From the NCBI RefSeq assembly GCF_013315695.1, contig NZ_CP054353.1: DNA of 64,000 nt. The stretch is one strand, 5' to 3'. This DNA is from Escherichia coli. GTDB lineage: Bacteria; Pseudomonadota; Gammaproteobacteria; Enterobacterales; Enterobacteriaceae. Position numbers: made by a program. This document shows, piece after piece, positions 9,001-12,000 of this stretch; position 1 is the stretch's first letter; every line of letters begins with the position of its first letter.

Positions 9001-12000
9001 CAGCATTCATCACAAAATAGAAATTTAGTATTTTATGTCAGAATACTTCACATGATAATAAAAACCTGTCTGGATTTACTGCATGGCCAGACATTACAAA
9101 ATACAAACGCCATAAACTTCATTCAGCCTTCTTGCTGTTCGGTAACGGAGGCTGCTTTTTCGTTACACCTTTCCCCGGCAGCATCAGTAGCAGTAATTTA
9201 TAGATTCTACGAACTGAGACTGTCTGTCCGGGGAGAACGTACACAGCCCGACACAATGTACCAGTCAATAATATCCGGTTTCTGATTCCCTGCCTGACAG
9301 ACCACTCTCTGGCAACTTTGTATTCAGTTCATCTACTACTGGAGACAGATTTATAAAATCCAACTCCACGATCTTTGACCGTCCGCATCCCCTACTCTCT
9401 GTGCTGCGGTCATCGGTTAATTCCAGCGTCCGTCCGTTACGATCAGATATTACTGAACCGCCCCGGGTTTCCTGGAGAGTGTTTTATCTGTGAACTCAGG
9501 CTGCCAGATCATTGTTTCCGATGGAAGCATAATAAGCTTTTTCTGCTTCTGCCGGAGGAGTATGGCCCAGCCTTCCCAGCAATCATCGATTGTTATACCA
9601 GTCCACCCACGTGAGTGTGGCCAGTTCCACTTCTGCACGGTTTTTCCAGCTCTTACGGTGTATTACCTCCGCTTTGTAAAGACCATTGATGCTCTCCGCC
9701 ATCGCGTTGTCATACGAGTCGCCTGTACTCCCTGTTGATGCCAGCAGTTTTGCTTCTTTTAATCGCTCCATATAGGCCAGTGACACATACTGAGAGCCTT
9801 TATCGCTGTGATGGATGGTGCCGGACGGACGGCGGGCCCACAACGCCTGCTCCAGCGCATCCAGCACGAATGTCGTTTCCATAGACGATGAGACCCACCA
9901 CCCCACGATGTATCCGGCAAACACATCAATGATGAACGCCACATAGACGAAGCCCTGCCATGTGCTGACGTAAGTAAAATCAGCCACCCACAGCTGGTCA
10001 GGACGTTCTGCCACGAACTGACGGTTTACGCGGTCACCTGCAGCAACGGTTTTCCGGCTGACGGTAGTGCGGACCTTTTTACCCCGGAGAACACCGGCAA
10101 GTCCCATAACCGCCATGAGGCGCGCCACTGTACATCTGGCCACCCTGATTCCTTCCCGTAACAACTGACGCCAGACTTTACGCACACCGTACACCTGATG
10201 ATTTTCATCGTATACGCGCTGTATCTCTCTCTTCAGCCAGTCATCGCGCTGCGCACGGGCACTGCGTTTATCAGGATGATGTCGCTGTTGCTGACAGTGG
10301 TAATACGTTGACGGGGCAATATGTAGTTCACTGCATACCGGTCCGACCCCGTACAGCTTACGCAGCTTATCCAGCAGTGGCATCACTTTTTCCAGAGGCG
10401 GTCGAACTCCGCCTTCGCAAAATAAGCGGAAGCCTGGCGAAGGATATCGTTACTGCGGCGCAGTTCACGATTTTCACGTTCCAGCTCTTTCAGACGCTGA
10501 CGTTCAGCGGTGGTGAGCCCGCCATCACCGCCTCCGGTATTCCGCTCATGCTGGCGTACCCAGACACGCAGAGTCTCCGGTGTACAGCCAATCTTTGGGG
10601 CAATGGAACAAATTGCCGCCCATTGTGAGTCATATTCGTCCTGACTTTCCAGAACCATACGAACTGCCCGTTGACGGACTTCGGGGGAAAAACGTGTATT
10701 TTTAGTCATCCTGTTTACCTCTTTCTCAGGGAATTTAGTCTCCAGGATTCCCGGGGCGGTTCACAGTAATCATGCCGGGTCTGGCTGGCTAACACCCCAT
10801 TATAAGGGGTACGAATAAAGTAACGGGGCTTCACGCAGGGATGGACAGATTGCTCTGATATACAGCCGACGACGTCCCGCTGCAACATCATCACGCAGAT
10901 GCTTCATTTTCAGATTTGGGACCTCCTTTTGATTTCTCGTTTAACTTTTGCTGTTACCAGACTTTAATCTATTTTAACAATTCAAGAATTTTTTATAAAA
11001 TGCTCAAAGATGAAAGCGTTACTGAACCAACCAGCTTGGCTGATGTTTTCTATAGATAAAAAGATCATCAGCAAAAACTGATAGCCTGAATCACCTTTAC
11101 TACCAATCATGTATGAAGAAAACACGCACAAACAATTGACAATGATTATCATTTGCATTAAAAGGATTATGTAGTATTTTTATTTCATGAGGAACTATAC
11201 CCGCCAGCAATCTGAGTAGCGAAAGCTGTTCATCCCCAATATTTTTGCTGGCGGGTTCTTTTTTCTACTGCCCTTCTCCTCAGAGGGAGCATTCCATTCT
11301 TTTTCTCATTAATGGCGAGGGGGCGGGACAAAAAGCCGGTTCTTTATCCCTAAATAACAGCATGATTTCAGTCCATGCAAAATCTGATTTACCAGCTCAC
11401 ATAATAACCTGATGATACATGGGTTTTCCCTGATCATGGTGGGAAGGCTCAGAACGCCATATTCAGTTTCCCGTAGTGGAACATCACGCCCAGCTTAAAG
11501 CGCTCCCGATTTCGGTATCCCCTGGCTTTTATCCTCAGTAGCCTGATCTTACTGTTAAGCGCCTCCGCGTTTCCGTTTGAGACACGGTGTCGCATGGCAT
11601 TCAGGATCCCGTAAAGCCTTTTTCCTATCGTTTTCGCGGCGTTTTTCATCATAGGAACGTCACTGTTGGCCGCCAGAGCCAGCCATCTCTCCCAGTCATT
11701 ACGTCTTTCCTCACTCCATGGCCTGTTCCAGATATCCTTTGCCAGCTCTTTCAGCGCCCAGCACTGGCTTGTCAGCTTCATCTGTGCACGCAGCCATATC
11801 AGCTTTTCCTGCCTGGATTTGGTCATCCATTTATCGCTGTACTGCCACAGGAAGCGGGTCCCCTTTGCCTGACGCCAACTTTCAACAGGGAGGTGCGGAT
11901 GTTCATTCTGACGGGTTTTATCAACCACTTCGCCAAGTTGCTTTGCTACATGGAAGCGGTCGAAGGCGATTTTCTCAACCGCACAGGGTAAGTGGATACG

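Follow-up and report, generated by a model that had tools for sequence, protein, structure and literature searches.

A Fur-bound promoter and terminator unit of prophage origin in an Escherichia coli pathogenicity island, probably encoding an undescribed Fur-repressed small RNA

PasA and PasC (EcOnc51/52) are Hfq-dependent, Northern-verified small RNAs (sRNAs) of 79–85 nt encoded by the lambdoid prophages of enteropathogenic and enterohaemorrhagic Escherichia coli (EPEC/EHEC), and RNAs of this type have many trans partners in RIL-seq, which sequences interacting RNAs after joining them by ligation (PMC8550237; preprint 10.64898/2026.05.13.724894). Here we describe a short element, at positions 11133–11266 of a 64,000-nucleotide stretch of E. 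coli DNA (contig NZ_CP054353.1 of assembly GCF_013315695.1; the window), in which a promoter covered by a Fur box is followed by a long terminator hairpin. That a Fur-regulated sRNA can be acquired horizontally has a precedent in IsrE/RyhB-2, the island-borne Salmonella paralogue of RyhB. The window is a pathogenicity island of uropathogenic E. coli in which iha and the pap operon are found; over 25 kb its identity to strain MSB1_4I is 100%. A first-pass annotation had proposed an iron-regulated sRNA at this place; the observation behind the proposal is confirmed here and its interpretation is supported in part, the element being probably an undescribed Fur-repressed sRNA of prophage type.

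Fur occupancy and architecture of the element

Strain CFT073 has the same segment, with a Fur box identical to that of the window, and its coordinates in NC_004431.1 are those of the window plus 3,429,757. In this strain, chromatin immunoprecipitation followed by sequencing (ChIP-seq) of Fur gave a maximum at 3,440,893 (window 11136) with an amplitude of 3620, filed under "c3597 transposase" (Banerjee et al., PMC7157518 Table S5), and the Fur box lies within 2 bp of this maximum. Among the table rows compared, the amplitudes are 649 for iha, 341 for iucA, 1125 for iroB, 3245 for chuA and 5300 for yjjZ, so that yjjZ alone exceeds the element site (PMC7157518). The exonuclease-based variant of the method (ChIP-exo) likewise gave a peak, P114, at 3,440,891–3,440,903 (window 11134–11146), which was labelled "Intergenic" and assigned to an IS3 transposase unit (PMC10164565). 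Since two independent published data sets from CFT073 fall on the same sequence, the Fur part of the earlier inference is supported: the site is genuine and occupied in vivo, and it is practically certain that Fur binds the promoter region of the element.

The transposase genes to which these peaks were assigned appear in the binding tables and are absent from the regulon and expression tables that were searched (PMC7157518, PMC10164565), which is consistent with an unannotated Fur target; neither paper mentions an RNA at this position. Thus, a strong Fur peak has been booked to transposase genes in two genome-wide studies, and its real target has been left unaccounted for. A further strong Fur peak of CFT073, at NC_004431.1 4,333,067 with an amplitude of 1730 and listed under 'c4561 hypothetical protein' (PMC7157518), may be a second overlooked Fur target.

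The Fur box itself, GACAATGATTATCATTTGC (11138–11156), agrees with the consensus GATAATGATAATCATTATC at 15 of 19 positions, or at 16 of 19 when scored on the other strand, and its core is a perfect palindrome, AATGAT-T-ATCATT. Only two sites in the whole 64 kb reach at least 15/19, this one and the iucA/shiF box at 39422–39440, against 0.15 in dinucleotide shuffles. The latter site, AATAATGATTCTCATTATC, matches the consensus at 17/19, and its reverse complement is given for CFT073 as the iucA/shiF Fur box.

To assess which parts of the element are kept, we have compared eight variants distinct from one another, namely those of the island, of CFT073, of ColV and of RM13752 and four types from prophages, which differ by 13–16% overall. 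The plus strand carries a consensus −35 hexamer, TTGACA (11136–11141), invariant across all of them, and 17 bp downstream of it a probable −10 hexamer, TAAAAG (11159–11164; TAAAAA in other variants). The Fur box covers the −35 hexamer and the spacer, which is the promoter geometry of the Fur regulon, and the overlap of a Fur-box-like site with −35/−10-like hexamers described in the first-pass annotation is indeed present at 11136–11164. The −10 position is unchanged in all eight variants, and the next 7 nt are hypervariable; another −10 candidate, TAGTAT at 11172–11177, is lost in one of the prophage variants (L026). A prophage variant of the promoter was listed by a generic promoter scan as TTGACA-18-AAAAAT, with a 10/12 match.

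Downstream of the promoter lies a long terminator hairpin on the plus strand (11199–11256). Its outer stem pairs ACCCGCCAGCAA (11199–11210) with TTGCTGGCGGGT (11245–11256), 12 perfect pairs out of 12, and is followed by the tail TTCTTTTTT; the two arms are 34 nt apart and enclose an 8-bp inner stem with a GAAA loop (11213–11232) and a C/U-rich, 12-nt single-stranded bulge, UCCCCAAUAUUU (11233–11244). The T-tract, TCTTTTTT (11257–11264), can be read in all variants, with one T fewer in RM13752. The earlier description of a perfect stem with a T-rich tail therefore stands, but the stem has 12 bp and not 11, the structure is more complex than a plain hairpin, and the distance from the −10 hexamer to the start of the 5′ arm is 35 nt, not about 30 bp as had been stated. 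The structure is strand-specific: no T-run follows the stem on the minus strand, so the U-tract belongs to the plus strand only, and the inner stem, which has two invariant G-U pairs, likewise forms only on the plus strand. As in Hfq-type sRNAs, the 12-bp stem is followed by UCUUUUUU, and a U-rich stretch, AAUAUUUUU, stands directly before the 3′ arm. The calculated folding free energy is −28.3 kcal/mol for the hairpin (z −5.6 versus shuffles) and −33.4 kcal/mol for 11166–11266 (z −5.3). A generic terminator scan of the window did not list this hairpin, because its loop is too large.

From the geometry of promoter and terminator, a non-coding transcript of about 94 nt is predicted on the plus strand, running from 11171 to ~11264 (CFT073 NC_004431.1 3,440,928–3,441,021), somewhat longer than the ~80 nt suggested earlier. 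The element is likely to make a short RNA of this kind.

The eight variants also show that promoter and hairpin vary less than their surroundings. Every one of them has TTGACA, the core of the Fur box, TAAAA(A/G) with a spacing of exactly 17 bp, the complete 3′ arm and the U-tract. Counted over ungapped columns, 5 of 29 are variable in the promoter and 7 of 66 in the hairpin plus tail (11200–11266), as compared with 21 of 78 in the left flank and 39 of 131 in the right flank (27–30% variable columns). Promoter and hairpin together thus have 12 variable columns out of 95 versus 60 out of 209 for the flanks (Fisher p = 0.002).

Native prophage setting and relic copies

A rarer chromosomal variant, 84% identical, sits in an intact lambdoid prophage (L007). 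Here Q is followed by methyltransferase, by several terminators on the late strand and by the element, after which come class II holin, YdfR, endolysin, Rz/Rz1, iss/bor and terminase. We have examined the native context in this prophage and in 18 IMG/VR prophage loci, 16 of which have sequence reaching the holin side. In L007 and in all 16 of these loci the distance between element and holin gene is the same, and the holin gene is on the opposite strand. The promoter of the element is ~110 nt from the holin start and directed away from the holin gene, so that the predicted RNA is antisense to the late operon. Between the element promoter and the holin gene of L007, ~40 nt before the holin start, there is a clean minus-strand late terminator, AGGCCATCAG-AGTTTTG-CTGATGGCCT followed by TTTTTTCTTTC. 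No same-strand gene was found downstream of the element in L007 or in the IMG/VR loci, which include prophages of a methyltransferase type and of an ArtA/PltB-like-toxin type. Since the unit stands alone in intact prophages, divergent from holin and with no same-strand gene on either side, it is not a stray 3′ untranslated region or a terminator left over from a gene that the insertion sequence (IS) elements on either side have deleted, an objection that had been raised together with the first-pass annotation and that the idea of an sRNA has survived.

Two observations on the cargo of these prophages may be added. In the toxin-type locus L026 (IMG/VR UViG_2563366971_000010), positions 816–2002 (+) hold the genes for a PltB-like AB5 binding subunit and for the A subunit of a pertussis-like toxin that resembles ArtA (E = 1.5e-82, short of the equivalog cut-off). 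These genes lie between the Q side and the element/holin, which is the cargo position where Stx phages carry stx, and locus L027 has the same element variant. In L007, a 108-aa 'TonB family protein' is encoded beside iss/bor at 1894–2220 (−), a second iron-related cargo gene of an element-bearing phage.

Outside intact prophages the element is common. The segment 11100–11419 is present in 1426 of 5426 complete E. coli genomes (~26%), most of the 1426 having the relic form, and also on 574 plasmids, including plasmids from Salmonella, Klebsiella and Shigella; no match to the element was found in the phage collection searched. It is found in CFT073, in Nissle 1917 and in a strain with the label O25b:H4-ST131, among others, and on the ColV-type plasmids of avian and neonatal-meningitis strains. 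The copies on ColV/ColBM plasmids are 87% identical to the window segment and are flanked by iss (a homologue of lambda bor) and an Rz/Rz1 fragment on one side and by an IS element upstream of iroB on the other. The element is thus widespread on virulence plasmids and islands, and it has been overlooked so far; a literature search by sequence string retrieved no paper that prints its sequence.

How the element came to its present place can be read from its neighbours. The first-pass annotation had seen a non-coding interval between IS629 and an ISL3 fragment; the element in it is confirmed, but the interval, which extends from an IS3-family element to the ISL3 fragment, also holds pieces of Rz and of IS200. 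The Rz fragment (10800–10922, −), identified by the RefSeq annotation of identical DNA and by its translation LRDDVAAGRRRL, is an internal piece of a lambda-like Rz spanin gene. It is adjoined by an IS200-like left-end fragment of ~150 bp (10916 to ~11062, −), with its tnpA side leftward, which is cut off at the Rz fragment. The Rfam family STnc490/art200 (RF01405) matches at 10926–11048 (−) with 65.5 bits against a gathering score of 56, and the fragment is 75% identical to IS200C left ends, indicating that an IS200 end adjoins the phage DNA. Since this IS200 end in turn breaks off at a piece from inside Rz, the holin, YdfR and endolysin genes and most of Rz, including its start, have been deleted. 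Next to it, at 11063–11086 (−), is what is left of the hairpin that terminates the late operon ahead of the holin gene in the prophage; this degenerate relic is homologous to the L007 hairpin, with mismatches in the window copy. This relic stands in the place of IS200's own terminator hairpin, yet its sequence is that of the prophage late terminator.

On the other side of the element, residual prophage-derived non-coding DNA extends over 11267–11419 to the ISL3 junction, as judged from alignment with the ColV and prophage copies up to 11419. It includes a terminator-like hairpin on the minus strand (11360–11378), GCATGGACTGAAATCATGC followed by TGTTATTTAG, which was found by the terminator scan. 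Island, ColV and prophage copies all have it, though with substitutions, and it presumably belongs to the group of several late-strand terminators that separates Q from the holin gene. The island, ColV and RM13752 relics all stop resembling the prophage at 11419/11420 (locus L002, ~5317; L008), within 2 nt of one another, and the IS sequence past this shared breakpoint differs, being the ISL3 fragment in the window and other IS elements elsewhere. This suggests either that a single truncation took place in an ancestor, with turnover of IS elements afterwards, or that the point is a hot spot for insertion. The element therefore reached the island within a prophage relic (iss/bor–Rz′–IS200′–element) and not within an iron-uptake locus, and the link to iha and the aerobactin genes drawn in the first-pass annotation comes down to adjacency. 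It is a complete and autonomous unit that has outlived the decay of its prophage.

Proposed function and competing explanations

We favour, with rather better than even expectation, the reading that the element is a self-contained transcription unit of lambdoid-prophage origin that makes a Fur-repressed, Hfq-type base-pairing sRNA. When iron is present, Fe-Fur sitting on the −35 hexamer and spacer of the sigma-70 promoter would block RNA polymerase, and when iron is scarce, the promoter would fire and give the ~94-nt non-coding RNA that ends at the long hairpin and U-tract. Hfq would be bound via the U-tail together with the U-rich stretch that precedes the 3′ arm, and either the GCCAGCAA arm or the conserved C/U-rich bulge UCCCCAAUAUUU would be the candidate pairing region. 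In the prophage setting, such an RNA would be antisense to the leader of the lysis cassette and could couple holin expression to iron. In the island and in the ColV/ColBM plasmids, IS200 insertion and deletion would have taken the lysis genes and left the unit beside the Rz fragment, with iss/bor retained adjacent on ColV. For the island copy a trans role alone could remain, and a regulatory role of the RNA there is a tentative proposal that we hold to be somewhat doubtful.

If the RNA is indeed an iron-responsive sRNA, then the Fur network of those E. coli that are extraintestinal pathogens (ExPEC) has an unrecognised post-transcriptional arm that travels with virulence plasmids. Carried to its end, this line of thought would make the element a second Fur-repressed regulatory RNA of E. 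coli: derived from a prophage, kept by ExPEC islands and ColV/ColBM plasmids next to iss and iron-uptake loci, acting in trans on host or virulence mRNAs under iron starvation as a mobile counterpart of RyhB, and tying lysis genes to iron in prophages. In this full extent the proposal is rather unlikely to hold.

Published expression data for the plasmid interval between iroB and iss may bear on the element. On plasmid pS88 (NC_011747.1, ~109.3–112.5 kb; L012 14347–17496), open reading frame (ORF) 131, located between iroB and iss, is 9–15-fold up in serum, urine and in vivo by quantitative reverse-transcription PCR. ORF 130, also between these two genes, is ~10-fold up in urine only, and both ORFs change only ~2-fold in iron-depleted lysogeny broth.

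Several observations weigh against the sRNA reading. The generic promoter scan of the window did not list the element promoter, because the −10 hexamer does not end in the T that is near-invariant at this position, and the terminator is atypical in that its arms are 34 nt apart. No compensatory change was seen in the 20 stem pairs of the eight variants, which contain a few one-sided changes and three broken cells, ColV having one A-C mismatch; it is thus the thermodynamics that speaks for the structure, and the divergence of the variants is so low that covariation says nothing for or against it. The segmentation into promoter/hairpin and flanks was chosen post hoc, so the support from conservation is modest. 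Moreover, two exact-pattern scans of representative genomes of other species in GTDB gave no match in the first instance and then one chance match in an Anaerolineae coding region; an element absent from the representatives of other species is young, and its conservation may partly reflect recency. When the RNA was compared with 90 translation-start regions in the window using RNAduplex, it did no better than shuffled RNA, and long-duplex energies are not meaningful in such a comparison. Finally, the searchable literature yielded no transcript, transcription start site, Hfq crosslinking and immunoprecipitation (CLIP) or RIL-seq study of an element-bearing strain.

A different reading is that the unit works only in the prophage, where cis-antisense or convergent transcription, for example, would damp or time the holin and lysis genes when iron is scarce, while the relic copies regulate nothing despite binding Fur and perhaps making some RNA. 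In its native place the RNA has perfect complementarity to the leader of the late operon, directly upstream of holin; on the island and on plasmids the copies lie amid IS debris and decayed phage fragments, the adjacent late-operon terminator hairpin has decayed in the window, and the duplex scan of the window made no trans target evident. Such a loss of function is nevertheless unlikely in our judgement, as the promoter, the core of the Fur box and the hairpin are intact in three independent relic lineages (island, ColV and RM13752, 10–13% apart) while the flanks gain changes and indels, the relic is carried by most of the element-bearing complete genomes and by the 574 plasmids, and RNAs of the PasA/PasC type in the same slot have many RIL-seq trans partners. 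A reading that dispenses with a meaningful RNA altogether, in which the Fur site is a roadblock or iron-dependent barrier on the late transcript before holin, or a strong decoy, and the hairpin is an unrelated phage insulator, strikes us as quite improbable. It would account for a very high ChIP occupancy at which no annotated gene is regulated, for the weak −10 hexamer and for the crowd of terminators in the Q–holin region of these prophages. It leaves aside the consensus −35 hexamer exactly 17 bp from a positionally invariant A-rich hexamer, which is the standard geometry of a Fur-repressed promoter, and the terminator that is found on the plus strand only, at sRNA distance from the promoter; besides, lambda Q-modified polymerase is generally resistant to roadblock-type barriers.

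Two further explanations invoke a protein, and both involve the 10-codon ORF noted in the first-pass annotation, which is indeed present at 11187–11219 (+; MRNYTRQQSE) and is without a Shine-Dalgarno sequence. Its overlap with the 5′ arm of the terminator recalls leader-peptide attenuators, and all relic lineages end at the same point, 11419, as might be expected if the IS elements on either side had removed a protein-coding gene of which the element is the leader, the attenuator or the 3′ end. Against this stand the two intact prophage types (methyltransferase and ArtAB-like toxin), in which no same-strand gene lies upstream or downstream, the upstream neighbour being the divergent holin gene and the downstream genes all being on the other strand; we would give a lost gene hardly any weight. 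As for a 10-residue micropeptide, no variant has lost the ATG or the stop codon. However, the changes identified among the variants comprise five kinds of replacement at four codons (R→K, N→K, Y→F or Y→H, S→P) versus one synonymous change (CAG to CAA), and this preponderance of amino-acid replacement makes a micropeptide unlikely. With the missing Shine-Dalgarno sequence, and with the conserved part of the unit lying downstream of the ORF, we judge the ORF to be non-coding and the chance of a functional peptide to be very slim.

Comparison with known small RNAs

The first-pass annotation had not recognised the element as RyhB or another named sRNA, and the covariance-model searches bear this out: an Rfam cmscan of 10700–11500 at E values up to 10 gave no match on 11133–11266, nor did a scan of the whole window at gathering thresholds give any on the element. 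The only family above threshold near it is art200/STnc490, which belongs to the truncated IS200 end and is unrelated to the Fur box and hairpin. Elsewhere in the window, AS-pc02 (antisense to pHK01_099) at 9083–9261 (+; 56.5 bits), just 3′ of papI, and IS102 RNA at 54948–55152 (+; 258.9 bits) are above their gathering thresholds.

Three candidate identities have been considered and rejected. PapR has ~22 nt of near-perfect complementarity to papI, 74–96 nt after the papI start codon, whereas no 22-nt window of the element does better than 14/22 against papI; moreover, the published description places PapR outside the pap island. PasB came into question through its frequency in ExPEC, but its place is among the structural genes of the phage, and Pas matches are almost never on plasmids. 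A remnant of the sitA or iroB promoter was considered for the ColV copies between iss and iroB, but the true iroB Fur box is elsewhere (L002, ~6727–6750), and chromosomal iroB loci are without the element.

Other sRNAs encoded by prophages or islands are known from EHEC, namely Esr41, HnrS, AgvB and AsxR, which resemble the predicted RNA of the element in being short, intrinsically terminated and borne by lambdoid prophages, and which act on core-genome mRNAs or sRNAs. Esr41 reportedly regulates iron-uptake mRNAs. In contrast to the element, HnrS has 66 nt and occurs almost only in strains positive for the locus of enterocyte effacement; the other three have no Rfam match to the element, and Fur control is not reported for any of the four in the literature seen.

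The closest likeness in position is to the Pas RNAs. With their coordinates mapped onto E2348/69, PasA is found in the same slot and orientation as the element, between the last cargo gene of the late region and the holin gene and on the opposite strand, and PasC in the corresponding slot upstream of holin, with an IS element now on the holin side. Both RNAs share with the element a similar size, an intrinsic terminator with a GCCAGC...GCTGGC stem, a prophage origin and survival in degraded prophages, and the PasA locus also has a TTGACA hexamer, ~30 nt upstream of the mapped 5′ end of PasA. In sequence they are apart: nhmmer gave no match on the Pas genes, and a covariance model built from the eight element variants scored 11.6 bits on PasA and 11.7 bits on PasC (E ~5), the level of generic terminators. 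The weak matches of this model also fall on the PasD2 terminator, which indicates a generic likeness of terminators. No Fur-box-like sequence was seen, by eye and unscored, near TTGACA upstream of PasA or PasC. The distribution differs as well, since Pas sRNAs are confined almost entirely to EPEC/EHEC chromosomes (12 plasmid matches among 4,600), whereas the element is on more than 570 ColV-type plasmids and on ExPEC islands. If the proposed Fur control is true, we know of no earlier example of the holin-upstream sRNA slot of lambdoid prophages with a known transcriptional input.

In its control, the element is nearest to RyhB (RF00057), with which it shares a Fur box over a sigma-70 promoter and a non-coding RNA of ~90 nt, predicted in the case of the element, with an intrinsic terminator; by analogy, induction by iron limitation would be expected. 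It differs from RyhB in giving no match at E values up to 10 and in having no core sequence in common. The only complementarity between the element and RyhB that was noted by eye, a 6-nt AGCAAU, is not kept in other variants. Taken together, these comparisons suggest that the element most likely works like a Fur-repressed sRNA of the RyhB kind placed in the slot of PasA and PasC, while being a member of neither family.

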